DNA of 64,000 bases from Eubacteriales bacterium (GCA_045603085.1 JAZULL010000132.1:10575-74574); one strand, 5' to 3'. Counted from the stretch's first letter, positions 29,701 to 54,002 are shown. Notes: generated by a model from the sequence alone, not told the origin. A program made the numbers and translations.

Positions 29701-29808
29701 AAGATAATCAGGTTGGTCATCATCGGCAGCAAAGATGCTCAAGGGCAAAGCCCCCAGCAGCATTGCTACTGTCATAACGACGGCAAGCAAACGGGTAATG
29801 TTTTTCAT
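23704..29808 (-). CDS. giant membrane-anchored surface protein (2034 aa) with C-terminal Big_2-like Ig domains
   Basis: Signal peptide MKNITRLLAVVMTVAMLLGALPLSIFA. There are two Big_2-like segments (ITYHSSDESVATVDQNGKVTIIGAGTTTV and VTYSSSDPTIASVDAATGRITAHKAGQVTITVTA). The C-terminus has a TM helix plus RKKKV. Confidence 0.85.
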   Translation of the reverse strand: MKNITRLLAVVMTVAMLLGALPLSIFAADDDQPDYLALSDGYLSVKVSAKNGGFLIDTVEGDQLKKSDDNKFLLYPDDDFDTSYTSFRVTRNGESKDYIFGRNYGFLGLASSDVEIEKVNNSIVAKWSVDGLTFIQTLTLLDTTANQHGMVFITYEVENAKEDAQIQARVMMDTALGYQDYALYELTQPDGEYLTVESEQLLEGSAYASSFYAWDNEYSPSVTAYTVNATVNDQPCQPTRVAFGHWNNLASTVFDFTPGDVYFTNSQNEYLTADSAYALYFDMGTAPEGGKGTAIGTYYGIYSNVNISEEEKVAINFEMPAALELNADADGYVRIQNAGAPGTFAMHLRITNISSETLEDIAIALYPEEGLVSYDLTGVQNSTATAADPYYVRVIDLIPGEERMVTVNFAATPHTNTEYRKIGVRIFDIDGTNLHLLQEKVIGERDSYVLCPGGSGTSLSFNSITPNVIYYTGTRSLYLSGANFSYLRDKSTYDVLLRSTDGRPDVKIPPERVFIDTENNTAEIVISEYLDTGTRQVVFDWKDATKLDTTSDALRFSVSNNASFKNTVYGIVTIEQNPYYDSESDSDNKYILYAYESEEDYALEFSAGDKMDSVLMEFRGDFSITMAADNKTVIAAKATAIQGGDSINISNCLDVDNGTLEISIEQIGTADQEILVDIDGEVYTTGARSKVWDGVCALTAIGNDTILAKYNQIGKHVNDKVETSEANMDTIMLCWPGAASGAQTLAGMVMEFRYAEFGRMFYESEKNEGASKFVIAFSAEVSPDFLVPSTFAYDKGVEAKWDYHQEQNRLAGRPYVAKEIRDVNERNRADIQKMKANKNGALSIALHDILFGGGFIGFNASVDIGIPAYTQGMPSLEGHLNMKVMGEEWAMNVKGAADFIIFEMEGEFGLRSHNGIPVPDKLYFFMGGVTPGINVDGMGIFWIRGLGGGVDKIYETIFTASILPPLTIMFKGQYALFGTLTATGELSLSARGFSAAISDLGVAGINVIDELYAELYWYPTIRFSAGIQVSILDVIYGSGSLILQELDEGFFWEGYVTAGIKIPAWIPAIGNTNVGSADLGVNQERVWGAIHVIGIDAGVTYYWGGDVEFGLGKYDAPEPTVSPYARLRSAVATDAATGRTLYMSLAASENGLSDTAITTNEAQTQHTFTLDGALAGQEDALISVSIYASSMQQAKEGFAVVCDGESYPLVWVDDSKALDHPDNADANARITYDEQSQTAYISFTVTDADCFDKEISVTTTLISDATVYGMPRLPGLDSISVNGTEAELVGDVSGLDGLVIYAIAEDGSRYVIYEGAANRNVTLVYPENMPSGSYTVTAVGSTADMTSNPIVSLENFAYENPNTPEKPTLNGIALGGDYTVDVAVTAPAGDFDGYLVTVYELGEDGSLAPTVYSDVLMDKGQTTLTLGGQYTSTVDAYTQEGADAPMFEAQTITYGLMAGKTYVAGIRTYKEVEEGVYLPSEEILSDGVVMLEAVKPTVSMTAQGKVTVDGADYVGKSDVTIQITSDETLKNLKYMLDDGGDLNTSEDDWIAFEGDSIYLEGLSEGGHKLVLRGEDAQGDAFDCIYTFTVRATSPVLMLSSPGNGSFFGEQICVSGITDPNAQITVTLEGEPVKVVADTNGSFTVTLDMDISAAYQSITVKATNFLGNESREISLTLTNELLGKDGLRAIILLDGQPISQLTEEHEGKQLTMALMSKGKMITVNPDSYMANRIIWSVTSISGNVSVDQRGVVTGIDENAHAMISASVESLNAGVIVGVGEDVKLQSIAFESTSVEKTEGDEDFTMTVSGAVEGSRITYHSSDESVATVDQNGKVTIIGAGTTTVAAVVEAIGEYGQTSAYYVLTVKAKAPDIPEKQEQTIEIDLSERKATCTQVLDARPVSAKGAVTYSSSDPTIASVDAATGRITAHKAGQVTITVTAAQTDEYLEASVSYILTVEHDWVEGVCACKDVLEKDTDTTDTGADTEPDTAPDTVPDDPNDPTPASYTWVWIVAIVAAALIGGGVAVYLLVIRKKKV

Positions 29809-38078: not shown

Positions 38079-39299
38079 TTATAGGATGCTTGGGAATTCC
38101 GACCTGTCCTTTACGCCGGTTTTTTGGACGACTCGAAGTACGGTCTGCTTTACCGTGGATTCGGATATGTAGAGCATCGCTGCAATCTCCTTGGAAGTAA
38201 AACCAAAGGTTGCCAGCTTTGCCACTTCCCTTTCTCTGGCTGTCAGGTTTATTGCAATATTTCGGTTACGCACGATACCGCTGAGCTTTGACCAGCCAAC
38301 GTTATAAGTTCTGTACAGCTCCAGCACGCGATCAACCGCCCCGGGATCTTGAAGCGCGATTCGCTCTTCCAACAGTCCGTCGAAGTGACGGACGTATTCG
38401 GCAAGCACACCGAAAAAACGGTCAGCTAACGCCAAGCTGATTGCTCTATCCATGTGTCGTATCGCGGATTCATTGTCTCCGCCATTGTGATAGGAGACGG
38501 CGCAGGATAGTCTTAAAAACATTTCCGGAAGAATCGTTTCGTCTACAACCGCTTGTGAGATCATCGGCTCAACGGTATATGGCATCATTCTCATCATAGC
38601 CAAGCCGTGAACCCCCTCGAACTCAAGCTGTTTTGCAGCGATTGAATATGCTTTCATATACAAGTATTTGGTGTAAAAGACCTTTGCGGCAGGATGCGCC
38701 TCAGGCGGCAAGGGTTCAAAGCAGCCCGTAGTAAACCATGAGGGAAAATCCTTATTATCATAAAGTGAGCTGTCTGCAATAGCAAGCGAAAGCGAGATGA
38801 TCTCTCTTTGCGTTTCGCTCTCACAAGGAGCTTCAAAGATGTGTCTTTTGGCTTCCTTCCACAGCTCATAGTCGCCTCTCCAGATGGCACATTGTGCCAG
38901 CAGCATACCGCCACCCAAAATAGCATAAAATCCGGAATGTGCTGATAAAAAATATCTTGCGCGGTCATATACCTTATCAATTTCTCCCCGTCGATATGCG
39001 ATCTGCGCTTCAAAAAGCGTCATCGCCTCCGGATTGTTCTCCAACATTGCGACACAACCGTCCGCATTCCCAACCTGATTGTATAGATCGGTCATATCAA
39101 GGAAGGGGCTTTTTCTGGGCATAGGCATATGAGGAACCTCCCCCTTTGCGGCACTGGGCAATACCGCATGTGCCGGGATCATCCAGGTGCGTTCCCATCT
39201 CACAGCACCCTTGATCTTCCCTTCCTTGCAAAGTCCTTGCACTCTGCGAGGGGTCACACCCCATTTTTCCGCTGCTTGCTTTACCGTGATCAGATCCAT
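38079..39299 (-). CDS. transcriptional regulator with N-terminal MerR/excisionase-type HTH and C-terminal LuxR/GerE HTH
   Basis: The N-terminus is MDLITVKQAAEKWGVTPRRVQGLCKEGKIKGA. The C-terminus is LTAREREVAKLATFGFTSKEIAAMLYISESTVKQTVLRVVQKTG. I trimmed the start to the ATG at 39299, which has a GGAG RBS. Confidence 0.8.
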   Translation of the reverse strand: MDLITVKQAAEKWGVTPRRVQGLCKEGKIKGAVRWERTWMIPAHAVLPSAAKGEVPHMPMPRKSPFLDMTDLYNQVGNADGCVAMLENNPEAMTLFEAQIAYRRGEIDKVYDRARYFLSAHSGFYAILGGGMLLAQCAIWRGDYELWKEAKRHIFEAPCESETQREIISLSLAIADSSLYDNKDFPSWFTTGCFEPLPPEAHPAAKVFYTKYLYMKAYSIAAKQLEFEGVHGLAMMRMMPYTVEPMISQAVVDETILPEMFLRLSCAVSYHNGGDNESAIRHMDRAISLALADRFFGVLAEYVRHFDGLLEERIALQDPGAVDRVLELYRTYNVGWSKLSGIVRNRNIAINLTAREREVAKLATFGFTSKEIAAMLYISESTVKQTVLRVVQKTGVKDRSEFPSIL

Positions 39300-39360
39300 A
39301 AATTCTCCTTTATCATATATGTACATATATGCTTAAACTACATTGTACGCATACCGCCGC

Positions 39361-39620: not shown

Positions 39621-39690
39621 TATAAAGGCTTTTAGAAACCAAAAATACCTGGCATCTAAACTACAACAGTTCGGATCACAAGGTCTTTTC
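39621..39690 (-). repeat. cassette-boundary repeat, copy A (short form, hairpin-terminator core)
   Basis: TATAAAGGCTTTTAGAAACCAAAAATACCTGGCATCTAAACTACAACAGTTCGGATCACAAGGTCTTTTC aligns with copies B and C. It lies immediately 3' of the RloC-like gene. Confidence 0.7.
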
Positions 39691-39702
39691 CAAATACGAT
39701 TA

Positions 39703-42270
39703 CTAGACACCCATGCGTTTGTTGTATTCTGTCACCCAAACGCGAAAAGCTTCTACATCTTTTTTGAAATCTTCAATATCTACAATGACCGGAGCTGAAT
39801 CCTGAGGTTGAGAGTGCTCAAAATATGAATACTTCGTCATCATACTTTCGATAATCTCGCAATCTTCAACCCTGATATTAGCTAGTTTTTTGATGATTCC
39901 TTGCGTTCTTATTTGCTTATCAAATCTTTGAACAGATTTTAGAATCAAAACATCTTCCACAGAACGTTCAACCAGTATTCTAAATCTTTTGTATTCGGTG
40001 TCTATAGCATGTTGATATTCTTCAGAATCTTCATCTTTTTTCTTAATTTGAGCTATTGCATCCAAAATGCCACTCAACTGACTTTTTATTTTTCCATGAT
40101 ATAAATCCTCAAAATCTGGAAGTCCCTTGTATTTTGAACCCGCACGAATGTGGCACTCTTTAAAAGCAACTGACATTTCCTTACAACATGTCGAAAGGCC
40201 AACCAATAAAGAAATCCTATGCGTAAATACAATGACCTGTCGTGTTTGAGACATTTCAACAATTCTTTTGGTCGCATATTCTTCGTAATTGCAATCAAGC
40301 GATGATATAGGATCGTCAATGATAACAGGACTCAAGGCATCTCGTCCTGTAGCATCAGCAAAAAAAGCCGCTAAAGCTACAATTCTTTGCTCACCTTCGC
40401 TCAGAATGTCCTCAGGTTTTGCGCTTGTTTCATCAGTAATAAGCTTTATTCTGTAAGGCGACTTACCTTTCGTAGATGGCGCTTTCTCCAATTGAACCTT
40501 CAACCTGGGAGCCATTCTTTTTAGTTCGGCAGCAAAGCGTTCAATATATGATTCTGTGATCAGTATATCTGCTAGTTCATTGCTTTGACTGGTTATTTTA
40601 TTCGTTTTTACTAAAGTTAGTGAATCATCTAAAACTTTCATTTCAGATTTGTTAGAGATCACCCTTTTTATATTCTCTTGATTGTCTGCAATCCATTTAT
40701 GACACTCTAAGCATTCAAGTTCGCTACGTAAAATCTCTTGCGCCCCATCCTTTAAAGTATCTGTAAGATTTTTATACTCTTTTTCAAGATAGCACTTAAC
40801 AGAAACGAGTTCTTTTACGGCTGTGTCAACATCAATTTTTTGCAAAGAAATATAGCATTCTTCAGCTGTTTTTATATCTGAAAATTCTATACTCTTTTTA
40901 TAAAAATCAAATGTAGCATTGAACGAAAATCCTTCAATGTATTTACCTAGAGCATGCTCCACTCTATTAAAATTGAAATCTCGTTTTGCAAGTAATTTGC
41001 ATAAAGCAAAAAATTTGTTTTCTTTTTTTTCAAGATTTTCACTACATTGCCCATTGACATAATTATCGATAGAAGAAAATCTTTTCAAAGCATCGTCGGA
41101 TAATTGTTGATTGCAAAGAGGACATATTGAACCGCTGCCCGCGTATTCGATTCCAGTCTTGGGCTGAAGAGTTGAAACATAATACTGTTTGGCATATTTC
41201 CACAGTTCCCTCCAAGCAACCAACTTAACACTGCAATTATCATTTTCGTTTGCAGCTTCGCTAAACATTTTTTGGGATAAACCATACGCCTCTTTTGCTT
41301 CAACGTACTCTTTATACATTTCACAAATATCATGTTTGTTGTATACTGTCTGTGCAGTCACGAGATCTTCTAAAATTTGAGTAACTTCGCCGAGTCGTTC
41401 ACTTATTGTTTTGATTTTCTGATCAATAAACTCACGGTTTAATACTGCCGAAATTTCAGATAATCTATTTTCTTGTTGCTCTGTCCAATTCAAATACTTA
41501 TCATCAAACACGGTATTGCTTTCAATGCTTTTTACCCACTGTATGTTTGAATACGACCCAATTGAAGAAGGCACTTGTATAGTAATCTTTTCGAGAGCTT
41601 TTTTTCGAGATAAAATTTTAGCTTTTATTCTTTCAGCTATATTTGCTAATTCAGTTAATACAGAAAACACAAAAGGCTCGTAAGAAACCTTGTTAGATGA
41701 TGTAACGTATGCTCCAGATATTTTAGTATCGAATACATCGCAAGATGTGAGTGCCGGGTGCTTTTCTTCCTTCGACAAATCGCAAGTTATAGTTTTGGTT
41801 TCTCCGTTTTGCGAAACTTCAATTTTGCATGTCGGTTTTCCCGAACCACTTTTTTCAAACACATTTGCTTGTATAAGATCCGCATACGGTGTTCCGCTTA
41901 CTCTTTTAAACATTCGCATAAAGCTCGATTTACCTGTGCCATTAGCTCCATATACAACCGTTACGCCTTTTTCCGCAAAAGAAAGCTGAGCTTTCGAATC
42001 AAGGGCGTTTACACCACATATATCAAATATTTTAAGTATAGATAACTGTTCTAAAACCGTGCTTGGCAAGGTTTCTTGGCTTTTAAGTTCTTTATAATCA
42101 ACGATTTCTTTTTTTGTTTGCTTAATGCACATATCTGCATATGCTTCAATTTGTGCATCCTCGATAGGTTGGGAGTTGTATATTCTCCATACAGCATCCC
42201 TAAGCCAGTACGGTTGATTATGCATCCATTTTTCAAACTTACCATACATTGCATTTGCACTCTCAGTCAT
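39703..42270 (-). CDS. RloC/PrrC-like AAA_13 ABC-type ATPase with coiled-coil CxxC hook (candidate anticodon nuclease / abortive-infection protein)
   Basis: - Walker A: YGANGTGKSSF.
- CxxC motif mid-protein, within a long helical region: GSICPLCNQQL.
- Signature-like: SEGEQRIVALAAFFA.
- Walker B: VIIDDPISSLD.
- H-loop: VIVFTHR.
- C-terminal R-x-x-x-E (RILVE) plus FEHSQ, reminiscent of the PrrC nuclease triad.
- Start trimmed to the ATG at 42270, which has a GGAG RBS. Confidence 0.65.
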   Translation of the reverse strand: MTESANAMYGKFEKWMHNQPYWLRDAVWRIYNSQPIEDAQIEAYADMCIKQTKKEIVDYKELKSQETLPSTVLEQLSILKIFDICGVNALDSKAQLSFAEKGVTVVYGANGTGKSSFMRMFKRVSGTPYADLIQANVFEKSGSGKPTCKIEVSQNGETKTITCDLSKEEKHPALTSCDVFDTKISGAYVTSSNKVSYEPFVFSVLTELANIAERIKAKILSRKKALEKITIQVPSSIGSYSNIQWVKSIESNTVFDDKYLNWTEQQENRLSEISAVLNREFIDQKIKTISERLGEVTQILEDLVTAQTVYNKHDICEMYKEYVEAKEAYGLSQKMFSEAANENDNCSVKLVAWRELWKYAKQYYVSTLQPKTGIEYAGSGSICPLCNQQLSDDALKRFSSIDNYVNGQCSENLEKKENKFFALCKLLAKRDFNFNRVEHALGKYIEGFSFNATFDFYKKSIEFSDIKTAEECYISLQKIDVDTAVKELVSVKCYLEKEYKNLTDTLKDGAQEILRSELECLECHKWIADNQENIKRVISNKSEMKVLDDSLTLVKTNKITSQSNELADILITESYIERFAAELKRMAPRLKVQLEKAPSTKGKSPYRIKLITDETSAKPEDILSEGEQRIVALAAFFADATGRDALSPVIIDDPISSLDCNYEEYATKRIVEMSQTRQVIVFTHRISLLVGLSTCCKEMSVAFKECHIRAGSKYKGLPDFEDLYHGKIKSQLSGILDAIAQIKKKDEDSEEYQHAIDTEYKRFRILVERSVEDVLILKSVQRFDKQIRTQGIIKKLANIRVEDCEIIESMMTKYSYFEHSQPQDSAPVIVDIEDFKKDVEAFRVWVTEYNKRMGV

Positions 42271-42666
42271 TTTCTCCACTCCTTCACAAAACGTTCTGCT
42301 CGTTAATTAATTATAGCACTATTTAAGCGTAAATTCAATCAATTTTACAAAAAAAACACGTTTCTCGCGGCACTACTAACTAGTTGTGTGAGTGGATTTA
42401 TCCTCTATTTTACAGAATGCATTTACTACAATCTTCCCGTATATACCATTAGATTTTTACTTTCTTACATTTGGAGGCGTTATTAGAAAAACCACACCTG
42501 CCAAAAACGAATGAAAAGTGATAGAATCTATCCGAGCCTATCTTCTCACTTTTTAGTTAACGTTTCAATTGTGATTCTAATACCGAGTTTGATTGCGTAG
42601 CAGAATATTACACAATCACCATGACTTGCATACTTGCTCCAGCTTTCCCAAAGAAACGCTGTCCCC

Positions 42667-42858
42667 AAATCCTGAACAGCTTGATTCATATAATTGAAGA
42701 TGTTTTTATTTGCAAATCGATTTTGAGTAATTTTCAAAATTTTTTATTGGACACATCCATTGGCAGAATCCGTGAAAAAACATTGAAATATAAGGCTTTC
42801 GGGCACAAAAAAAGACCTTGCATCTAAACCGTAATGGTTCGGATTACAAGGTCTTTTC
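42667..42858 (-). repeat. cassette-boundary repeat, copy B (about 190 bp)
   Basis: Aligns over its full length with 46978-47167, including the hairpin AGACCTTG...CAAGGTCT plus T-run (minus strand) and the start of a mini-ORF (MNQAVQDL...). Confidence 0.75.
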
Positions 42859-42900: not shown

Positions 42901-45900
42901 TTAGTCCTCCTCATCTCTTTGCTTCATTCTTTGCATGTACTGGTGCTCCTTAATATGATGCATCGCTTCGTTTGTATAACTATCTGCGATATCACGCAAT
43001 GCTTCAGCGTATTTTGCGTACCCCATAGACTCGACCTTTTCGGCCATTTCGTTATATTTCTGTGCCAATTGCAATTCGGGTTTTCCTTCGGGATCTACTC
43101 TCACAACTCCTCTTTGATTAAATACTCCGATACAATACCCCCTTCTCATTTCATCATTTTCTACTTTGTTTAATTCGTTGATAATAAACTCGTCAATCAA
43201 ACCGTTTTCAAGCTTTTTCGCATGTGAAAGACCGCGCCCTATAGTTTGGAGGACGACTTCTTCTCGATCTTCTTCTTTCCCCCACTTTTTACAATATGTC
43301 ATCCAGGTTGAAAATATTTCTTCGTGATAGCATCCATTCCAATCTGTTCCTGGCACAACACAGAATTCGAATATCAGATGATATAGACGCTTTACGTCAT
43401 ATTCAGAAAGTTGTTCTTCATGAGTATCTGAATGCTTTTTTCTATAAACAAGCTTAATAAGTTCGCAGAAAAATTCAGGTTCGTTTGCAAGTCTATAACG
43501 CGTTGCCAATGGTTTCACCGAAGAATGATCATCAAGCCACAACAAATAAATCATCTCAATATCTGAAATTTCTTTTATACTTATGCTTCTCTCTTGCTGA
43601 AGCAAGCCAATTAAATTTATAACTGCATCTGGATCCAATTCGTCGTTGCTTTCGGTAGTAGCAGCTTTAATCAAAACTGTATATATCTCAGTATGAGAAA
43701 TATTACAATTTTCAACGGTATTTCCATACAAATTGACCGCTGCTGCGTATCGCTCTACTTTCACTAGGTTTTTCCAAACAATATCCGACTCAACACTATC
43801 GTCTAAACCAAAGCGGGGTATAAGAATAGCACGCCAAAACAAATCAAAGTTTTCTTGTAAGAGTTGCTCAGCGATTTCAAATAACCGCATTGACAACCTT
43901 GGTCTCGACAATACCCATGCTACGTAATTTGCGTCATAAGTATTAAACTTTGCTGAAGATAACGCCTCCGGACCGTTTACTATAACAAACCCATAGATGA
44001 CCGTAGCAAAAAAGGTTTTATCTATTTTATTTTCATAACAGAGTTGTACAAGCCTGAAAAATTCCTCCTCGTTTAATTTCATTCCTAAATGTTGAGCAAT
44101 CCAAGTTGGTTGACTCAGAGCCGTTCCAAATTCGACAACTGAATCTATACCAAATGTCGTAAATATCTCGTAAACTGCATTTTCCTGCTTATTTCGTTTA
44201 GCTTGCCATTTTGTCTCGAATTGATCATCTTCATCATAATCGATATACCCTGATTCATACAACAACCGATAACTATATCGAATATCAGTCGGAGCAGTCA
44301 ATGCAATACTGGAATCCAATATTTCTATCATAGATGAATCTATCTCATCTTCCGAGTGGTGTGTTATCCATTGTTTTTCAAAACAAAAAGCTTTCCAAAA
44401 CGGATATTTTTGAGAATCACCCCAATTTGCTGCTTTCACATTGACTAAAGAAAGGAATTCAATCATGGTTTCACGTCCCATATGATCAAAGTCGGATAAC
44501 AGGTCTTTCATTTTTTCATAATTTTCTTTAGCAAGAGACAAGGCTAATTGAGAGTAGTACTGGTATAAAGATGCAATGTCTTGATTCGAAAGTTTAATCT
44601 CCTTAGGCAAATTAGGTAGAATATATCGAGGACGATGTGTTCCCCCTGTCATGCGAGTAGCATGAGGAAGCAGTTGTGTGATGATCATCCAAGCAATTTC
44701 CGGACATTCGCGTTGTAACGCCATGAGTGCTGACTTCTGTTTTTCGACTGATGCCATTGTTTGTATATGCCATGGAAGCAAGATACTAACAATTGAATTT
44801 GTTGGCGTGTTTGAATAATTGGTTTTCTCATATTTTAAATTCGCTAACAGTCCCAATATTCTGATGCACTTAATCAAATGATCCTTATCCCAAGCCAATC
44901 CTTCAACTGACCATAATACTGAACAAATAGTATTTCGAGAGAATATTGGGTTGTCATTAGCCTTGGGAAATAATGCTTCGATACTTTGAGGAGATGTTAC
45001 GATTTGTTTCTCTAAACATTCTAAAAAAGTTTCTGGGCTTATTTCTGCAATCACAGGCAAATGCGATTCTAAACTTATCCAGACGGTTTTATCTGCATCA
45101 GTAAAAACTGCACGGATTAATTCTCTTGCCTTTGAGGCAATAAAATTCGATGAACATGATGTCTGCATTCCAATATTACAGATAATCGCTAAGCCGTGAA
45201 TCAATCCATTCCTAAGCGCATCAGAATGATCAAATGCACCGCCTTCCGGAGTCAGCCAATCAATATCACCGTTTTCTTTAATGCGTTTATCCTTTTCTTC
45301 TAAGACCGCTTTCGAGACCTCAAAGGCTTTTTTGATAATATCGTCAAAATAAGTTTTTGAACAAGATTGGATTATAGAACGTCTATGATTTATATGCCAT
45401 ATACCATCCATGAACGAAACATTGGGATCAGGCTGCAGAGAATCTTCTTGGAGTTTTCGTCGGATATCCGAATAATTCGTTTCCAATAAAGTTGCCAATA
45501 ACTCTTTATCATTACTATTCTTTTCATTCCATTCTCCCACCAAAGCGATCTTTGCCCAAAAGGAGTCATCAGAATAATCATGAGGTAGTTCTTTTGTCTC
45601 AACCAAATCAATTACACTGATAAATTTTTCTTTAATAAAATCCGGTATACTGCTTATCGTAACATACTTAGCGCTTCTATCATATCTGCTTGCCCAATCT
45701 ACGAGCAATGCCCACACTGACATTGCATCATCTTTACAATTAGACGCTATTAAGGATCGGATCAAAAAATCATTGATGCTACTTTCGTAGTCCAAATCAA
45801 AAATGAGAATTGTGAATATCTTGCAGAACGCCCATAGTTGCTCGTCTGTAATGTCCTGATTATTATTAGCCTGTGATAAGTGTTTTTTTATTATATCTAG

Positions 45901-46416
45901 TTTTTCTCTATTGGTATCACTGGAGTAATGAGGAGTTTGAATTCTATTTAAAAAGTCTCTGGCACTCGATGCACCATTAGCTTGATCATGAATAAAACGG
46001 AGCGAATCTTCATTGGCTACTGAACCTGAAATCAAAACGATTTTATCAGTGTTTGGATCAAATGTTTCTTTGTTAAAATCGCTCCAAGCAGCGGCAATTA
46101 CTTCTTTGAAAGCCGGATTGTCACCTATAGTTATTCCATGTTTTATTTGGCACAGCAGATTTGCTGAACGTGATTCTGCAGAAGCTGTCACAACAATATC
46201 ATCGATATCTTTACCAAGTCTTTTGGCTTGAAAATCTAGTGATGTTACAGGTAAGTCTAGTAAAGGAGAAAAACCTTTTACCAAAAGAGCAAGAATAAAT
46301 GTAGCTTGAACGCGGTGCTCAAAATCTACGCCACCTCCACCGGTAGAAAAAGGATTGCTAAGTTTTTTTACTGTTAGTCTATCTAAACTCTCGCCTCTCT
46401 GTGTTTGAGATGTCAT
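42901..46416 (-). CDS. 1171-aa protein: N-terminal PD-(D/E)xK-like (Cap4/DUF4297-style) nuclease motif, then about 1000 aa of helical repeats
   Basis: GGAGG RBS and ATG at 46416. The N-terminus reads STGGGGVDFEHRVQATFILALL...LDFQAKRLGKDIDDIVV...LLCQIKHG, giving an (E/Q)...DD...QxK pattern. There is no Walker A motif. The remainder is Leu/Ile/Glu-rich and helical. Confidence 0.5.
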   Translation of the reverse strand: MTSQTQRGESLDRLTVKKLSNPFSTGGGGVDFEHRVQATFILALLVKGFSPLLDLPVTSLDFQAKRLGKDIDDIVVTASAESRSANLLCQIKHGITIGDNPAFKEVIAAAWSDFNKETFDPNTDKIVLISGSVANEDSLRFIHDQANGASSARDFLNRIQTPHYSSDTNREKLDIIKKHLSQANNNQDITDEQLWAFCKIFTILIFDLDYESSINDFLIRSLIASNCKDDAMSVWALLVDWASRYDRSAKYVTISSIPDFIKEKFISVIDLVETKELPHDYSDDSFWAKIALVGEWNEKNSNDKELLATLLETNYSDIRRKLQEDSLQPDPNVSFMDGIWHINHRRSIIQSCSKTYFDDIIKKAFEVSKAVLEEKDKRIKENGDIDWLTPEGGAFDHSDALRNGLIHGLAIICNIGMQTSCSSNFIASKARELIRAVFTDADKTVWISLESHLPVIAEISPETFLECLEKQIVTSPQSIEALFPKANDNPIFSRNTICSVLWSVEGLAWDKDHLIKCIRILGLLANLKYEKTNYSNTPTNSIVSILLPWHIQTMASVEKQKSALMALQRECPEIAWMIITQLLPHATRMTGGTHRPRYILPNLPKEIKLSNQDIASLYQYYSQLALSLAKENYEKMKDLLSDFDHMGRETMIEFLSLVNVKAANWGDSQKYPFWKAFCFEKQWITHHSEDEIDSSMIEILDSSIALTAPTDIRYSYRLLYESGYIDYDEDDQFETKWQAKRNKQENAVYEIFTTFGIDSVVEFGTALSQPTWIAQHLGMKLNEEEFFRLVQLCYENKIDKTFFATVIYGFVIVNGPEALSSAKFNTYDANYVAWVLSRPRLSMRLFEIAEQLLQENFDLFWRAILIPRFGLDDSVESDIVWKNLVKVERYAAAVNLYGNTVENCNISHTEIYTVLIKAATTESNDELDPDAVINLIGLLQQERSISIKEISDIEMIYLLWLDDHSSVKPLATRYRLANEPEFFCELIKLVYRKKHSDTHEEQLSEYDVKRLYHLIFEFCVVPGTDWNGCYHEEIFSTWMTYCKKWGKEEDREEVVLQTIGRGLSHAKKLENGLIDEFIINELNKVENDEMRRGYCIGVFNQRGVVRVDPEGKPELQLAQKYNEMAEKVESMGYAKYAEALRDIADSYTNEAMHHIKEHQYMQRMKQRDEED

Positions 46417-46485
46417 ATGTTGCCTCCTATCTGTCTTATCATGTCCTTTTTTGAATCGATTCTTTACAACATTATCTGACACCTT

Positions 46486-46514
46486 ATTATACCATATAAC
46501 TATAAATTGCACAA
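46486..46514 (-). promoter_or_regulatory. sigma-70 promoter with extended -10
   Basis: The minus strand reads TTGTGC-17 nt-TGGTATAAT, about 65 nt upstream of the ATG at 46416. Confidence 0.45.
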
Positions 46515-46977
46515 TAGTTAATGTATGCATTATTATATATTATCCGCGGGCTCCCCCCTTCAGCCATGTTCAATGCAGCACAGATCTCTTAGATGTAAAT
46601 ATAAAAAATATCACTGAGAAATGAAATAGCAGTTCAAAGGCAGGTATCGATTGAAAATCTGCGCCAAGACTAATTCTCCACTCAGACAACAAGACAAATC
46701 TCACTTATTATACTTGCACAACATGTCTGAAAGAGTTCAGTGCCAAGCAATCACTTTCCCATGCGCAGAACTCCTACAACTATTTCGCTTGCGAATCATG
46801 TTCCAAGACTCTCAAGCAAGATTGAATATTCAGAAAAGACTTTCGTTCTGAAAAAATATGTTCCGTTCTATCACGTGATTTATGGAGTTTTAAAATAATG
46901 ATCGCCCACACTCAATGAACGGGTACTGAACACCAAATAAATGTGACGCTGACTACCATAAAAGAAAAGCCGTCCGG

Positions 46978-47167
46978 AAATCTTGAACAGCTTGATTCAT
47001 AGTATGAAGCGATATTTATTTCCCAACAAGATTTGAGCAGATCTCAAAAAGTATTATTAGACAAATCTAAAGGGAGAAAACGCGAAAAAGCATTGATACA
47101 TAAGGCTTTTTGTTACAAAAAGGGCTTGCATCTAAACCGTAATGGTTCGAAATGCAAGGTCCTTTTG
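46978..47167 (-). repeat. cassette-boundary repeat, copy C (about 190 bp)
   Basis: See copy B. Here the mini-ORF is truncated (MNQAVQDFRTAFLLW*). Confidence 0.75.
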
Positions 47168-47179
47168 TCTCTATAACAT

Positions 47180-47740
47180 TCACTTTATACCTATGCAAGA
47201 ATCAAACCGTGACAAAAACCAACTACGCAAAGCACAAACAACAGCCTCATCTTTTACTAATACTGCTACATAACTACTATTAGTAGGTAACGCAACAACA
47301 GCCTCCTTGGTAGATAGTCCTTGTATTCTAATATCATTATCCTTCCGTAGGCGTATTTCAGCATTGAGAATTGTGAACAATTCTTTCAACTCTTCTTTAG
47401 CGTTTGCTGCTTTACTGATATCTGAATTAAATATCATCTGAAATTTTACCCCACGAGCTGCGGCAGTAGCAATTTTTCCATTTACATCACCATATATATT
47501 TCCCGAAACGCTTTGTCCCCAAATAATCTCATCCTTTTTTGCCCGTGTATACATAGAGTGAAGGTGTACTAACATTGCATCACGTGAAGTAAAAACAGTT
47601 AATTTATCATTAACTTTCAATTTATTTTCTGTCTTTGCTGCATATTCCTTGCGCTTGTAATGAACAGCCACACATACAGATACAATATTTGTTATTAATA
47701 AAGCGAACGATATAATTATTGGAATAAATACTTCTGCCAT
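47180..47740 (-). CDS. membrane-anchored hypothetical protein (186 aa)
   Basis: I trimmed the start to MAEVFIPIIISFALLITNIVSVCVAV, an N-terminal TM helix, followed by a soluble domain of unknown family. GGAGG RBS lies inside the upstream gene. Confidence 0.6.
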   Translation of the reverse strand: MAEVFIPIIISFALLITNIVSVCVAVHYKRKEYAAKTENKLKVNDKLTVFTSRDAMLVHLHSMYTRAKKDEIIWGQSVSGNIYGDVNGKIATAAARGVKFQMIFNSDISKAANAKEELKELFTILNAEIRLRKDNDIRIQGLSTKEAVVALPTNSSYVAVLVKDEAVVCALRSWFLSRFDSCIGIK

Positions 47741-47741
47741 A

Positions 47742-48560
47742 TTAAACATCCTCCTTATTGATCTCCATATATTCACAAGCACCACACAATATAGAATTTT
47801 GTGTACAGGCATATCGATAATATGTCATAATAAAATCATCATATTTCTCACATATTCTACTTCGAATTGGATTTTGATAGTTTACATCAACATCAAATAA
47901 ATCCACTGCTCTTTGGTTAGTTATAGAACCAGAACACAAACTATTGACCCACGATTCATTGAATGACTTTTCTACACTTTTAGTTAGATTTATGCCATCA
48001 CAACAAAATTTAATAGTAACTGCTTTTTTATCTCTTGTTAAAACAGAAAAAATCCCGTGAGTAACATCATTTTTTACAATAACACCCCATCCCCATTTAT
48101 CTAAAAACTGTTGTATAGGTAATTCCCCAAATTGTTTATCCTGATAAACAATAGCCGATGCGGCATAAATATTATTTTTATATAGAATTCTTCCTTGAAA
48201 TATACCATGTGGGATTATTACATTCCACGCGGAAAAACAATCGATAGAATTCTCATATAAATTTTGTTCAATAGTTTCACAACAACAAGTAAATGAAATC
48301 GCTCCATCAACTTCTATAAATCCTTTTTTTAGATGTACTCGCAATATATCACCGTCTAAGAAAAATGGGGAATCGCTACATGATAACAAATAACGTTCAT
48401 GCCCTTTCTTTCCATCGATTGTATAATATGATACCGACATATATGATGAATGCTCATATCCAAACATATCAGTCTGATGTAAAATCACATTAATAAAAAT
48501 ACTATCAGAAACAAATTGAGTATACAGCCATTCAAAATTATACGAAGTAGCATTTTTCAT
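47742..48560 (-). CDS. hypothetical protein (272 aa)
   Basis: GGAG RBS. The stop is 1 nt before the next ATG. The protein looks Cys- and aromatic-rich with predicted beta-rich sequence, and I recognise no motif. Confidence 0.6.
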   Translation of the reverse strand: MKNATSYNFEWLYTQFVSDSIFINVILHQTDMFGYEHSSYMSVSYYTIDGKKGHERYLLSCSDSPFFLDGDILRVHLKKGFIEVDGAISFTCCCETIEQNLYENSIDCFSAWNVIIPHGIFQGRILYKNNIYAASAIVYQDKQFGELPIQQFLDKWGWGVIVKNDVTHGIFSVLTRDKKAVTIKFCCDGINLTKSVEKSFNESWVNSLCSGSITNQRAVDLFDVDVNYQNPIRSRICEKYDDFIMTYYRYACTQNSILCGACEYMEINKEDV

Positions 48561-48818: not shown

Positions 48819-49421
48819 TTAGTATATTGAGAAAATTCCAAAAAAAATAGTAAATAGCAAACCCACAACAGATAGTAACGTAGCAATCGTGTTAGTTTTT
48901 TCTTGCTTTTTTAATCTAAATTCTTTATTCATTATTTCCTCAGACAATTGTTGCAGCACCATTTCTCCCAACTCAACATTCCCATGAACTAACGCTTCGC
49001 TAATATTATTAAGCAATGTAGCCTCTTTAGTGGGAAGATTGGAAAATGGTGTCTTTTCTGTAACATATGTATGTAATATCAGACACATTGTACGTACATT
49101 CTCGTTCTTCTTTTCGTGAAAAACACTTTTAAAATTAGCATCTGTATATGCATCATATCGAAATAAAATTTGTTCGAGTATATCTAAGTATGATGTTTGT
49201 TTTTTAGATGATAAACCTTGATATATTTTGTTATAATTCATCATCGACCGATCATAAATTTCCTCAATTGAACTTTTATTATCAGAAACAATGGATTTTA
49301 TAGCACAATGAAAGCGTCTTAATTTAACTTGTTCTTGAAATTTATTAAGATAAAAAAAACAAAAAGCGCATATATACAACAACATAAGAAAAATAACAAG
49401 CACATACTGAAAAACATCCAT
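48819..49421 (-). CDS. hypothetical membrane protein with TM helices at both termini (200 aa)
   Basis: GGGGAGG RBS. N-terminal helix MDVFQYVLVIFLMLLYICAFCFFYL and C-terminal helix LLSVVGLLFTIFFGIFSIY. Confidence 0.6.
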   Translation of the reverse strand: MDVFQYVLVIFLMLLYICAFCFFYLNKFQEQVKLRRFHCAIKSIVSDNKSSIEEIYDRSMMNYNKIYQGLSSKKQTSYLDILEQILFRYDAYTDANFKSVFHEKKNENVRTMCLILHTYVTEKTPFSNLPTKEATLLNNISEALVHGNVELGEMVLQQLSEEIMNKEFRLKKQEKTNTIATLLSVVGLLFTIFFGIFSIY

Positions 49422-49834
49422 ATTATTACCTCCCCTAGTTTTTAAATACATTTATATTATGTCGAAAACAGAAGTATTTTTTAATATATTATCAAAAAAA
49501 CTACGTAATCATTCAGTAAAATTATCCCCTGCAGAAAAATTCCTTAGTGAGTTGATTTTTCAATCACTCTATTACAACTATATATAAAAATCACTTAATA
49601 GGATTTATTGAAAATCTTATGTTATACTATACTTTCTTCGTCTAACAATTTATGACACTCAAGTGTTTTAAGAAGATTAATTGAATAACCCATTTCCTAA
49701 TTGTAGACAAGCACTGTAATACTCCTTTATCTACGTCTGAAATACAATTAATGATTTCACAAATTCCCATCTCACTAATTAAAAATCCTTTATGAGACAG
49801 ATTATAACAAATATCGACAATATATTCAATATTC

Positions 49835-49924: not shown

Positions 49925-51568
49925 TTATTTATGTCTTTTCCTCCTTTTCAATTCTTCCTCAGCTCGATACCCACCTTTGAGAGTTATGACAATTTTTTTG
50001 TTTCCGCAGACTTGGACGCACTCAACCAACCTGCGAACAGTAACGTCATCAAACTCCGTAAAGTTCATATTCGTCTGTTTGAGAATATCCATTATTCTTG
50101 CAATCTCTGCATTAACAGACTCACTCTGTGCTGCTTGACTCTTGGCAAGGTCGAGTTTACCGCGAAGCACAACCAACTGATCGAACATCTTTTTCAGTTC
50201 GACCTCATATCTTTCGGGATCACCCTCGGTTCTTGCCGCAAGTTCGGTCATTTGCTGAATATCTTCCTTCAGCTCGTTCATCTGCCTTTCGATGGAAAAG
50301 ACATCAAGTGCTGCATTGTTTCCCGAGACCGCATAGGAAAGATTGCTTTGAATAAGGCTGAACACTTCCCCGCTGTTTGCCATCATCTTGGATAAGCAAC
50401 GACAAATGGCTTCGTGAAGCATCTGCTCCTCTATCCCTGCCGAGTCCTTGCAATATGTTCTACCGTGTTCGATACGGCTCACACATCTCCAATAGTAAGT
50501 AGTCTTGCCTTTGGCACTTTTGGAGGTTCTACGAAAAGAACCACCGCAAGACCCGCACACAAGCAATTCTGTAAGGGCATATTTCGCACTGTACTTTCCC
50601 TGCTCGGTAACAGCAGAATCGAGTTTCTTTCTCTTATTGTTTCTTCGTGCAAGCTCAGCTTGTACCAAGTTGAAGGTATCACGGTCAATAATCGCAGGGT
50701 GATTGTTGGAGATCAGATATCTCGTTACTTCACCGCGATTGACCTTTGCCTTTTTACTGATACAATCGGTACGGAAGGTCTTTTGATAAAGAACGTCACC
50801 GACATACTTTTCATTGGAAAGCATATATCGAATAACCGAGATTGACCACACATCCTTCCCTTCCGGTGTTTTGATATTATTAGACTCAAGGAACTCCTTT
50901 AACTGTCCGAGACTTGCTCCATCGAGGATCATTCGGAAAAGTGCTCTCACGACCTCGGCTTCATCTGCAACAATATACGGATTTCCATCGTCACCCTTCC
51001 TCAGACCAAGCATTTTGAAGCGGAGAGAGTAAGTTCCGTTCTTCATTCTCTTTTGGATACCCCACTTGACGTTGGCGCTGATACTCTCACTCTCGGATTG
51101 TGCCATAACGCTGAAGAAGCCAAGTAAGGTTTCATTCTCTGCTTTCAAGGAGTCGAGGTTCTGTTCCTCAAAGTACACGCCGATACCCATAGCGCGGAGT
51201 TTTCTGATCCAAGTCAAGCTGTCGACCGTGTTTCTCGCAAAACGGGTGGTGGATTTGGTCAGTATCATATCGACCTTCCCTTTTTCACAATCGCGCATCA
51301 GTTTAAGGAACTTCTCACGCTTGTCTGTTCGGGTTCCCGTGATACCTTCGTCTGCGTAGATACCTGCCATCGTCCAATTCGGGTTTTCAGCGATCTTCCC
51401 GGTATAGTATTTCACCTGCGTATCCAAGCTGTTAAGCTGATCTTCTTCATCGGTGGAAACACGGCAATAAGCCGCCACTCTCATTCTTCTGTATTCATCC
51501 TTCCTGCTTGTGAGTGCAGGATTGGCTTCTATCTTTGTTATTGTTCTTACGGGTGCGTATTCGCTCAT
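49925..51568 (-). CDS. large serine recombinase
   Basis: Catalytic motif VAAYCRVSTDEEDQLNSLDTQ, a recombinase domain, a Cys zinc-ribbon (CGSCGGSFRR...YYWRC) and a C-terminal coiled coil. Confidence 0.9.
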   Translation of the reverse strand: MSEYAPVRTITKIEANPALTSRKDEYRRMRVAAYCRVSTDEEDQLNSLDTQVKYYTGKIAENPNWTMAGIYADEGITGTRTDKREKFLKLMRDCEKGKVDMILTKSTTRFARNTVDSLTWIRKLRAMGIGVYFEEQNLDSLKAENETLLGFFSVMAQSESESISANVKWGIQKRMKNGTYSLRFKMLGLRKGDDGNPYIVADEAEVVRALFRMILDGASLGQLKEFLESNNIKTPEGKDVWSISVIRYMLSNEKYVGDVLYQKTFRTDCISKKAKVNRGEVTRYLISNNHPAIIDRDTFNLVQAELARRNNKRKKLDSAVTEQGKYSAKYALTELLVCGSCGGSFRRTSKSAKGKTTYYWRCVSRIEHGRTYCKDSAGIEEQMLHEAICRCLSKMMANSGEVFSLIQSNLSYAVSGNNAALDVFSIERQMNELKEDIQQMTELAARTEGDPERYEVELKKMFDQLVVLRGKLDLAKSQAAQSESVNAEIARIMDILKQTNMNFTEFDDVTVRRLVECVQVCGNKKIVITLKGGYRAEEELKRRKRHK

Positions 51569-52437
51569 GCCGTTTTATCCTCCGTTTCTATGTTCGTTAC
51601 CTCTGCGTGATTGATAAATGTGACGGTCAGCGTTCCGTCTCTGTTGACCGCTATCTTCTGTACCGTTTCCCGTATCAGCATTATGTCAAGTTCGGTGATA
51701 ATCGGCAGATTGCGATACTTGTCCATCAGAGCTTCGGTCATTCCTCTGCTTCTGTCAAGAGGGCAGCACTCATATTTGTGTTCAACACATTTGAGTATCA
51801 TCTTGGAAAGAACACCAAACTCAACGTCCGTCTGTTCCTTGACTCTCTCAATCTCCTTGTTCTGTCGTATAACCTCCATCGAGGGAGAATACTCAATGTT
51901 GGAAGTATTCAATCGCAAAAGCTCGGGATTGTTTCGCACCCGATTCAAGATAATGAGCATGGCTGTAAAGATCTCTCTGTCACCCAAGTATATATCCACC
52001 TTACAACCGCTTGGGCAAAGCCATTTTTCTCGGCTTCTCCACTTGTTGCGGCGCCCCATATTCTGACCGCAGCAGGAACACACTAATTTACTTTTGATAA
52101 GTGTGGTAATCTCGGGGAGCTCGGTCTGTGTGCCACCCATATCCGACTTTCTTTTGTTGGCGAGATCAAAATCGGTCTGCGATATGATGGCGGGATAACC
52201 GTCTGCCCCTGCGTATTTCGGATTTGCTATGATACGGGAGATCAAGTTTTTCGTCCACACAGATTTATCAAGATAGTAGATAACTCCCTGCTCTGTCAGT
52301 TCGGCGGCAATAGCCATTAATGACTTACCGCCTATGTAATCTGCGAAGATGTCGCGGACTACTTTGGCTTCAAATTCAAGAATAACGGGCTTGCCGTTCT
52401 TGACTTCATATCCGTAAAGTATGGTTCTTAAACTCAT
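51565..52437 (-). CDS. recombinase-domain/zinc-ribbon protein lacking the N-terminal resolvase catalytic domain
   Basis: The protein starts directly with YGYEVKNGKPVILEFEAKVVRDIF (recombinase domain), followed by CSCCGQNMGRR...WLCPSGC. There is no RVST catalytic serine motif. ATGA overlaps occur on both sides. Confidence 0.8.
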   Translation of the reverse strand: MSLRTILYGYEVKNGKPVILEFEAKVVRDIFADYIGGKSLMAIAAELTEQGVIYYLDKSVWTKNLISRIIANPKYAGADGYPAIISQTDFDLANKRKSDMGGTQTELPEITTLIKSKLVCSCCGQNMGRRNKWRSREKWLCPSGCKVDIYLGDREIFTAMLIILNRVRNNPELLRLNTSNIEYSPSMEVIRQNKEIERVKEQTDVEFGVLSKMILKCVEHKYECCPLDRSRGMTEALMDKYRNLPIITELDIMLIRETVQKIAVNRDGTLTVTFINHAEVTNIETEDKTA

Positions 52438-54002
52438 GCCGCGACACCTACGCTTTCTTTCAAATTCAGACCACCTTTAAGTACAAAGGTGATGGTTCCG
52501 TTATCGTCCGCCTTAATTCTTTCAACGATTGATGTAAAGAGGTTTTCATCAAAGGAAAGAATGGCGGGAGGATAACTCTGCAACAGTTCTTTGAGGAATC
52601 GGAGATCTTCAATGTAGTGAGTATCCTCATCTTCACTAATCAGCTTCAAACGGCGGTTGCGGAGTGTTGTGATTCTGTTTTGCAGTTCCGCCGTTTGCTC
52701 TGCGTATGAGACCTCATCCATAATGTTCTTCGCACGAAATTTAGAGTACATATCGTTCTGTGACCAGAGCTTTGCGATCTCCGCATCTATCTGTGCAATC
52801 TCTTGGCTACCCGAGACAAGCCTTGTGCGAATGTCGATGAGCTGTGTCAGCGTGTTATCGACAAGCAAGGTCTCATATTGGCGTAAGCGATTATACATTA
52901 TAATAAAGGAAGAAAAGATCTCGCTTTCAAGGAGGTTCTTCCCTCCGCACTCATGCCCGGAATTACCTTTTCGGGAGCAGACCCAATAGGTAATACCGTT
53001 CTGCACTCTACGCTTATACGCCCATCCGCACTCATCGCAATAAATCATTCGGGTAAGCAAATACTGTTGCTTGGGGTTCTTTGGCGCATACTGTTCTCTC
53101 TCCTTGAGTCTCTGCTGCGCTACTTCAAAGACTTCTCTGCTGATAATGGCAGGGTGAGAGTTGGTAACATAGAACTTGTCCTTTTCTCCGTTGTTCTTGC
53201 GGTTACGCAAGGGTAAGATCTCGGGAGTAAAGGTCTTTTGGAGAAGTGCGTCACCGATATATTTTTCATTGGAGAGGATATATCGGATGTGCGCCTTGTT
53301 CCATTTACCTTCGCGCGAGGGTACGCCTTCACGGTTCAAGATTGCCGAGATCTGCCCCATTCCTTTCCCTGCGAGGTACATATCGAAGATACGGACAACG
53401 ATTACCGCTTCTTCCTCAACAATGACAAGAGAACCGTTTTCAAGTCGATAACCGTATGGAGCGCAGTAGGTAATGAAGTTACCCTCCTCCATCTTCATTC
53501 GGTACGACATTGCCATTCTCTTGGAGAAGTTCAAGGAATCGTTTTGAGCAAAGGCGCTCTTGATATATAGGATCATTTCAGAACTCATCGACCTTGTGTC
53601 GATCCTATCACTCTCAAAGTAAACGCTTGCTCCGTAGTCTGCGAGTTTTCGCACCGACTCCAAACATTCAAGAGAGTTTCTTGCGAAACGCTGAACGCTC
53701 TTAACATAGATACGGTCGATCTTGCCGAGCCTTGCATCGTTCAACATTCGCTTAAAATCGTCTCTTTTATCCAAGCTCGTTCCCGTTATGCCCTCATCGG
53801 CGTAAATATCGACAAGCTCCATCTTGTCTGATGTGCGGATGAAATCGGTGTAGTACCTCACTTGGTTCAGAAAGGAATTAACTTGGTCGTCGGAATCGGT
53901 ACTTACACGACAGTATGCCGCAACTCTTTGGACTCTCGCATTTGCGGAGTATTCCGCAAGCGGACGTATGATTTGTACTTGTTTTTCTGTGGCTACATTC
54001 AT
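52434..54002 (-). CDS. large serine recombinase
   Basis: Catalytic motif VAAYCRVSTDSDDQVNSFLNQ, a recombinase domain, CDECGWAYKRR...YWVC, and a coiled-coil tail. Confidence 0.9.
   Translation of the reverse strand: MNVATEKQVQIIRPLAEYSANARVQRVAAYCRVSTDSDDQVNSFLNQVRYYTDFIRTSDKMELVDIYADEGITGTSLDKRDDFKRMLNDARLGKIDRIYVKSVQRFARNSLECLESVRKLADYGASVYFESDRIDTRSMSSEMILYIKSAFAQNDSLNFSKRMAMSYRMKMEEGNFITYCAPYGYRLENGSLVIVEEEAVIVVRIFDMYLAGKGMGQISAILNREGVPSREGKWNKAHIRYILSNEKYIGDALLQKTFTPEILPLRNRKNNGEKDKFYVTNSHPAIISREVFEVAQQRLKEREQYAPKNPKQQYLLTRMIYCDECGWAYKRRVQNGITYWVCSRKGNSGHECGGKNLLESEIFSSFIIMYNRLRQYETLLVDNTLTQLIDIRTRLVSGSQEIAQIDAEIAKLWSQNDMYSKFRAKNIMDEVSYAEQTAELQNRITTLRNRRLKLISEDEDTHYIEDLRFLKELLQSYPPAILSFDENLFTSIVERIKADDNGTITFVLKGGLNLKESVGVAA

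Follow-up and report, generated by a model that had tools for sequence, protein, structure and literature searches.

The window, a 64,000-nt stretch of the genome of an Eubacteriales bacterium (GCA_045603085.1, JAZULL010000132.1:10575-74574), carries on its minus strand a gene for a protein of 1171 aa, referred to here as the focal gene and the focal protein. Coordinates are counted from the first letter of the window. This gene is part of a 10-kb island, extending from 39.7 to 50 kb, in which the GC content drops from ~52% to 28-37%. The open reading frame (ORF) is uninterrupted; the plus-strand translation across 42901-46416 is riddled with stops. These coordinates and the length of 1171 aa had been given correctly in a preliminary description of the window, which left the strand unstated. 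Homologues are of matching length, 1165-1175 aa. The gene and its signals are as follows.

42901..46416, minus strand: coding sequence, 1171 aa plus stop; ATG at 46416, TAA at 42903-42901
46423..46427, minus strand: GGAGG ribosome-binding site (RBS), 6 nt before the ATG; read directly, consensus match only
46486..46494, minus strand: extended -10 promoter-like element TGGTATAAT, upstream of the ATG; read directly, consensus match only
46514-46509, minus strand: weak -35, TTGTGC, belonging to the TGGTATAAT promoter-like element
42809..42857, minus strand: intrinsic-terminator-like long hairpin with U-run, directly after the stop codon

The extended -10 element and the RBS, both already noticed in the preliminary description, are present as consensus matches only. 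The TGGTATAAT site was not listed by a consensus promoter scan because its -35 is weak. A longer ORF from a start at 46530 lacks an RBS and would contain the extended -10 element; it was rejected, and the 1171-aa product was therefore kept. The RNA fold of the terminator hairpin has an energy of -24.6 kcal/mol (z = -6.7 against shuffles). With a strong hairpin and U-run after its stop codon, the gene forms its own transcription unit and is autonomous.

Nuclease head and helical body

The product is divided into a head, a linker and a large body.

45622..46368, minus strand: head module, residues 17-265; predicted Cap4-type PD-(D/E)xK nuclease core with a helical sub-domain
45565..45621, minus strand: linker, residues 266-284; predicted disordered, junction for head swapping in relatives
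42904..45564, minus strand: body, residues 285-1171, ~890 aa; small alpha/beta unit followed by an all-alpha solenoid

The nuclease core occupies approximately residues 29-130 of the head. Motifs in this region are GGGGVDFEHRVQATFILALL (residues 26-45), FQAK (62-65), DIDDIVV (70-76) and LLCQIKHG (87-94). All the motifs quoted in the preliminary description are found in the translation; their key residues are kept across relatives and are not chance strings. An alignment of 120 N-termini shows no change, or conservation of at least 98%, at G26, G28, G29, E33, Q37, Q63, D72, D73, Q90 and K92; W111, D113, D124 and D207 are likewise conserved. The putative catalytic residues are E33, D72/D73, Q90 and K92.

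The AlphaFold2 (AF2) model of residues 1-275 has a predicted local distance difference test score (pLDDT) of 86 and a predicted template modelling score (pTM) of 0.81. Its core is restriction-endonuclease-like, with elements in the order alpha-beta-beta-beta-alpha-beta (alpha 32-45, beta 56-62, 74-80 and 83-91, alpha 101-114, beta 125-130). An acidic residue in helix 1 (E33), acidic residues just ahead of beta-2 (D72/D73) and an (E/Q)xK sequence in beta-3 (Q90-x-K92, ending the strand) are all present in the model. A Foldseek search with this head model against the PDB, a check that had been proposed earlier, returns the nuclease fold, and its top matches are solely Cap4-type immune nucleases.

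8dgc (8dgc_A), Avs3: E=2.7e-6, TMq 0.54, probability 1.00
9hr5 (9hr5_A), Lamassu LmuA: E=1.2e-5, probability 1.00
7yib, 6wan and 6vm6, CBASS Cap4: E about 1e-4 to 3e-3; 7yib 1.8e-4, probability 1.00
9c1m, HerA-DUF4297: E=4.4e-3

On this model the head is a Cap4-type PD-(D/E)xK nuclease, for which DNA cleavage is predicted. A nuclease-like N-terminus of Cap4/DUF4297 type had been proposed before; fold, structural matches and conserved catalytic residues all agree with it.

The same head occurs on a different kind of protein. With the N-termini of certain proteins of ~1,700 aa, residues 17-265 share 40% identity; those proteins match PADLOC Avs4 from residue 266 onward (E=1e-189 to 1e-175) and carry STAND Pfam signatures (ATPase_2, AAA_16, nSTAND). 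The boundary between head and remainder is identical in the focal protein and in the Avs4 proteins, and coincides with the disordered linker. Judged by sequence identity, the head is thus classed as an immune effector module common to Avs4 receptors. AF2 pLDDT is below 50 at linker residues 267-278, and alignments to the proteins P0100 and P0096 stop or begin at residues 266-284.

The body is helical by DSSP on the full-length AF2 model (pLDDT 80.6). The small alpha/beta unit at residues 285-350 has a winged-helix-like order of elements; the all-alpha solenoid extends from there to the C-terminus. The helical character assigned to this region by the preliminary description holds, and its length of about 1000 aa is corrected to ~890 aa. 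Conservation is highest in the head and, within the body, at 501-600 (LLPWxPQT) and 951-1150 (NxRGxxxVDPxGxPE). The most variable stretch of the body is residues 601-950, with 11-26% identity among distant relatives; AF2 confidence is likewise lowest there.

No Walker A motif (G....GK[ST]) and no GK[ST] of any kind occurs in the 1171 aa, and the protein has no Pfam match to ATPase_2, AAA_16 or nSTAND. It is accordingly without a recognisable nucleoside triphosphatase (NTPase), as had been noticed before. Searches of Pfam, NCBIfam and PDB sequences came back empty-handed for the full protein, for a head profile and for a body profile; the body has no PADLOC match either. With the full model, a Foldseek search of the PDB gives generic HEAT/ARM solenoids only (karyopherins, exportins, CAND1), with template modelling (TM) scores of 0.10-0.17. 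DNA-PKcs and the FANCI/FANCD2 complex are among the HEAT/ARM scaffolds matched by the body. The top 50 matches of the full model include neither a DSR2 nor an Avs chain. Alignment by hhalign of the body profile with the NTPase-plus-sensor region of Avs4, the only Avs compared, gives a probability of 0.2%, that is, no relationship.

Relatives, interchangeable heads and genomic setting

The protein is unannotated rather than an orphan, as it had first been called. About 95 full-length relatives have the same architecture. An exhaustive hidden Markov model (HMM) search with the body profile finds 7,011 clusters (50% identity) at a threshold of E<=1e-3 and 3,958 at E<=1e-30; these family sizes come from the exhaustive search, a word-indexed search with the same profile having given few new proteins.

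Heads were counted in the top 247 body-containing proteins. The Cap4-like head of the focal protein is present in 172/247. The second commonest class, in 27/247, is an unnamed head of ~375 aa, sometimes with Metallophos or HTH_3 in front of it. The remaining heads are SIR2_2 (pAgo-SIR2-like), TIR/bSEFIR, PNP_UDP_1 ('PN-superfamily effector'), FRG (PDC-S15), GT4-conflict, SMEK_N, DUF4145 and AlbA_2. Approximately 25 of the 247 are headless, some perhaps truncated. The body is a distinct, conserved and swappable module. By analogy, one large module bearing many 'conflict-system' heads is the pattern of Avs, Lamassu and Dsr proteins.

The heads of ~375-530 aa in P0141, P0146, P0125, P0126 and P0189 have no Pfam match. 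Inspected by eye, they look in their C-terminal half like a STAND nucleotide-binding domain minus the P-loop ('REKAVEQLLRVF...LLLQTRYPEEGVDFVAAVLASL'), which is a hint at a possible origin of the family from STAND receptors. Plasmid-borne proteins with such heads are annotated 'helix-turn-helix transcriptional regulator'.

Distribution is accessory and patchy. In a scan of one genome per species, relatives were found in 247/185,579 genomes. The best 80 of these 247 are all full length and belong to Clostridia, Cyanobacteria, Gamma- and Deltaproteobacteria, Planctomycetota, Verrucomicrobiota, Chlorobium, a spirochaete and two methanogens. Among complete genomes of Escherichia coli, 8/5,426 have the gene. 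The homologue of E. coli A28, WP_044867624.1 (L092, NZ_CP028747.1 3805625-3809167), is named 'hypothetical protein' and is located at the tail-fibre end of a lambdoid prophage, adjoining an IS3 element. No homologues were found in the phage collection.

The preliminary description had proposed to distinguish between conserved housekeeping genes and genes of variable islands. Homologues are located in variable islands and mobile elements, without conserved synteny. One neighbourhood contains CBASS, a type I restriction-modification (RM) system with Abi_C, an Mrr-STAND protein and a reverse transcriptase. Others contain an RM/HNH/Vsr/Fic cluster; ArdA, PcfJ and the resolvase of a conjugative element; SLATT and integrases; or Abi and SieB on a conjugative Shewanella plasmid. 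A relative with a helix-turn-helix (HTH) head adjoins AbiEi/Eii, and homologues also occur next to HipA, a toxin-antitoxin (TA) module. When all ORFs within 6 kb of homologues at 89 loci are clustered, no partner proves to be conserved; those met most often are subunits of type I RM systems (8, 7 and 6 loci) and recombinases. Among 116 immediate neighbours scanned with PADLOC, S and M subunits of type I systems were found 5 times each; these are family-wise counts and imply no enrichment.

The closest relative, P0001, is 97% identical, and its neighbourhood differs from that in the window. Upstream of it, at L009 3972-5069, are a weak match to Peptidase_U49, the Lit-like phage-exclusion protease, and a DUF2971 gene.

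Comparison with known systems and proposed function

The combination of an effector and a helical sensor in a single protein without an NTPase is a kind already known. Dsr1 and Dsr2 resemble the focal protein in their N-terminal effector, ~900-aa helical sensor (a presumed sensor in the focal protein), absence of an NTPase, single-gene organisation and location in defence islands. They differ in the head, which is a SIR2 NADase in Dsr1/Dsr2 and a Cap4-type nuclease in the focal protein. Two body-containing relatives, P0130 and P0135, are SIR2-headed; their SIR2 resembles pAgo-associated SIR2, not that of Dsr. The PADLOC Dsr models match neither the focal protein nor seven body-containing relatives, the two SIR2-headed ones included. 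In NTPase-less Dsr1, an Avs-type sensor detects a phage capsid protein, and the Avs7/Dsr1 sensor superfamily comprises 9,097 proteins with many heads (PMC13581612). The focal body may itself belong, very remotely, to that superfamily.

Avs4 has its effector head in common with the focal protein, and the Avs3 nuclease domain is the best structural match of that head. Avs and the focal family both possess a large helical C-terminal region and swap heads. Unlike the focal protein, Avs proteins have a central STAND NTPase (Walker A/B, NBD-HD-WHD). The lack of profile similarity between bodies noted above applies to Avs4.

Lamassu LmuA carries a Cap4-type N-terminal nuclease like the focal head (9hr5), and the Lamassu head repertoire (Cap4, Sir2, SMEK and others; PMC12663957) is comparable to that of the focal family. 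The C-terminal domain of LmuA was not found in the focal protein, which has no PADLOC LmuA match and is three times larger. Lamassu has LmuB and LmuC partners; no conserved LmuB or LmuC and no recurrent SMC neighbour accompanies the focal family at the 89 loci. CBASS Cap4 has the same nuclease fold (7yib, 6wan, 6vm6), with SAVED and a CD-NTase operon; the focal protein has no SAVED Pfam match, and no cyclase is found among its neighbours in the window. The CBASS operon beside one homologue is a separate system.

The literature search turned up no specific named system with this architecture. The inability of the preliminary description to map it to one stands: the body is without a PADLOC, Pfam or NCBIfam model, and the head has a single weak PADLOC match. 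The head-body combination and the body family are absent from Pfam, NCBIfam and PADLOC 2023, and no paper was found describing either.

By analogy with these systems, the focal protein is proposed, with a probability of about 0.65, to be a stand-alone, single-polypeptide, NTPase-independent immune receptor against phages or mobile elements, sensing, oligomerisation and an abortive outcome included. In the resting state, the ~890-aa C-terminal alpha-solenoid, acting as the sensor, would keep the N-terminal Cap4-type nuclease inactive. Binding of an infection cue by the solenoid, most likely a phage protein, would cause a conformational change and oligomerisation. Nuclease heads would thereby be gathered into an active DNA-cleaving assembly, which would degrade DNA indiscriminately and abort the infection. 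No nucleotide switch would be required, as in Dsr1/Dsr2, and the output would be DNA cleavage of the kind carried out by the nucleases of Avs3/Avs7, Lamassu or CBASS Cap4. Cap4 domains are inactive as monomers; tetramerisation activates them in Lamassu (PMC12663957) and also in Avs3/Avs7 (PMC13581612). The specific class of trigger is held with less confidence than the explanation as a whole. A defence role had been suggested in the preliminary description from the nuclease head, the giant sensor-like body and the absence of an ATPase; fold, residue conservation, the Avs4 head and genomic context support it.

Several points weigh against the proposal. The Pfam Cap4/DUF4297 model has no match to the head at E<=0.1, and the whole protein is without a Pfam match; its sole profile match, a weak one (E=1e-4), links residues 24-193 to DUF626_VIII of PADLOC. 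The head is therefore a divergent Cap4-like nuclease and not a Pfam-defined member. The third catalytic position is occupied by Q, not by D or E. Q is probably acceptable at this position, in view of the QxK sites of Avs and Cap4 nucleases. Every named full-length relative is a 'hypothetical protein', and homologue accessions appear in no paper found by the literature search. Only generic solenoids match the body, so that its sensor role is drawn from analogy and from the head-swapping pattern. DNA-binding heads (HTH_3, AlbA_2) and headless forms indicate that the body is not exclusively tied to toxic effectors.

If the family is a defence system, it would represent a widespread receptor without an ATPase switch, found in many bacterial phyla and some methanogenic archaea, on plasmids and in prophages. 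It would sharpen the question of how helical sensors couple ligand to effector without nucleotide exchange. As one body serves many heads, a trigger found once could transfer to many effectors. A tractable E. coli homologue, WP_044867624.1, exists, and the hypothesis is therefore directly testable. Because no Pfam, NCBIfam or PADLOC model covers the body, defence-annotation pipelines miss thousands of such genes. More tentatively, and less probably than not, the ~890-aa body may define a very large family (about 7,000 clusters at 50% identity) of NTPase-independent immune receptors of bacteria and archaea, unrelated to the Avs4, DSR2 and Dsr1/Avs7 sensors. It would respond to an infection cue of its own and drive at least 10 heads, among them Cap4 nuclease, SIR2, TIR/SEFIR, nucleoside phosphorylase, GT4 glycosyltransferase, FRG and SMEK, purely by ligand-induced assembly. 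Pattern-recognition immunity would thereby gain a new branch about as large as an Avs family.

The best-surviving alternative, itself unlikely, retains the defence role and assigns the body a different cue, which would be a small molecule, a structure in nucleic acid or, as in the guard model, a host factor that has been perturbed. Contact with DNA would then be made by the winged-helix-like unit of residues 285-350. The order of elements at the start of the body favours this, as do relatives with the DNA-binding heads HTH_3 and AlbA_2, and the invariant polar motifs in 501-600 and 951-1150 could form a ligand site. The closest architectures, Dsr1, Dsr2 and Avs, nevertheless all use large helical sensors to bind structural proteins of phages (PMC13581612), and the variable stretch 601-950 of the focal body fits a fast-evolving protein-recognition surface. 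No positive evidence points to any ligand.

It is less probable still that the gene is an addiction or competition module of a mobile element, in which a nuclease toxin stabilises the element or excludes rivals and the body is regulatory. The focal gene with its promoter is bracketed by direct repeats of ~205 bp (about 85% identity).

46961..47165, minus strand: direct repeat, ~205 bp, upstream copy; hairpin and adjoining sequence
42650..42857, minus strand: direct repeat, ~205 bp, downstream copy; includes the terminator hairpin

A cassette-like unit between such repeats, near large serine recombinases, would suit an addiction module, as would homologues on conjugative plasmids and beside the TA modules AbiEi/Eii and HipA. 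Against this, no cognate antitoxin or conserved small neighbour is found at the 89 loci, and a conserved solenoid of 890 aa far exceeds what a toxin needs. The addiction explanation overlaps with the immune-receptor explanation, because defence genes of mobile elements show the same contexts.

A two-gene system was considered with the ATPase gene downstream of the focal gene.

39703-42279, minus strand: AAA_13/SMC_N ABC-type ATPase, 858 aa

This neighbour matches PADLOC PDC-S06 (E=6e-219) and, weakly, LmuB (E=9e-13). In a Lamassu-like or RloC-like pair, the ATPase would sense DNA ends or damage and free the Cap4 nuclease. The two genes are adjacent, on the same strand and in one low-GC island; the neighbour has AAA_13/SMC_N domains, and in Lamassu an LmuA with a Cap4 head is paired with LmuB, which is SMC-like (PMC12663957). 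The preliminary description had pointed to an RloC-like gene next to the focal gene and had suggested a co-occurrence analysis. The adjacency and the AAA_13 domain are correct; a functional meaning is not borne out, tblastn with the neighbour giving no match within 10 kb of a homologue (0/89 loci). A homologue with 85% identity already has other neighbours. The two genes are separated by a 620-bp gap with the strong terminator hairpin, and a separate promoter-like site precedes the ATPase gene. In addition, the focal protein has no PADLOC LmuA match, and PDC-S06 is catalogued as a single-gene candidate. The partnership, largely refuted by the lack of co-occurrence, was rejected as very improbable. 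Owing to this lack and to the terminator between the genes, the AAA_13 gene is treated as a system of its own within the island and as an independent candidate defence gene.

A housekeeping role as a DNA-repair or scaffold protein, its nuclease being structure-specific and borne on a platform of HEAT repeats as in the repair complexes of eukaryotes, is the least probable of all: the best PDB matches of the body are indeed HEAT/ARM scaffolds, DNA-PKcs and FANCI/FANCD2 among them, but these matches are generic (TM <= 0.17), and the role is contradicted by the occurrence in 8/5,426 E. coli and 247/185,579 species genomes, the absence of conserved synteny, the island of atypical GC content and the exchange of the head for SIR2, TIR and others.

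Remainder of the island and its flanks

The island is limited on one side by an HTH/LuxR regulator and on the other by three ORFs of the serine-recombinase family. Three small ORFs occupy its lowest-GC part.

38079-39326, minus strand: 415-aa protein with N-terminal HTH_17 (excisionase-like) and C-terminal LuxR/GerE HTH, at the boundary of the high-GC flank and the island
47180-47812, 47742-48560 and 48819-49451, minus strand: three small ORFs of 210, 272 and 210 aa, in the lowest-GC part (28%)
49925-51568, 51565-52437 and 52434-54002, minus strand: serine-recombinase-family ORFs in tandem, beside the low-GC island

Two of the three recombinase ORFs encode complete large serine recombinases (Resolvase, Recombinase, Zn_ribbon_recom); the third, of 290 aa, has the Recombinase domain only. 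The trio probably forms the integration module of the element carrying the island. The small ORFs of 210, 272 and 210 aa have no significant family match, only faint membrane-protein-like matches, and could be further island cargo. The upstream 210-aa ORF was compared with the SLATT protein upstream of the homologue P0010; the two are unrelated.

A long hairpin of ~49 nt with a U-run ends three consecutive gene units of the island, at 39641-39689, 42809-42857 and 47117-47165. Rfam gives no match to the repeated terminator hairpin. Three units with the same hairpin, together with the bracketing ~205-bp repeats, suggest a cassette-like assembly of the island.

The rest of the window, compared with PHROGs, is not an obvious prophage. 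Two giant ORFs are located in a flank of ~54% GC.

23704-29808, minus strand: ORF of 2034 aa
29993-37675, minus strand: ORF of 2560 aa

The 2034-aa ORF has Big_2 Ig-like domains, and the 2560-aa ORF is without a Pfam match; both are probably surface proteins.

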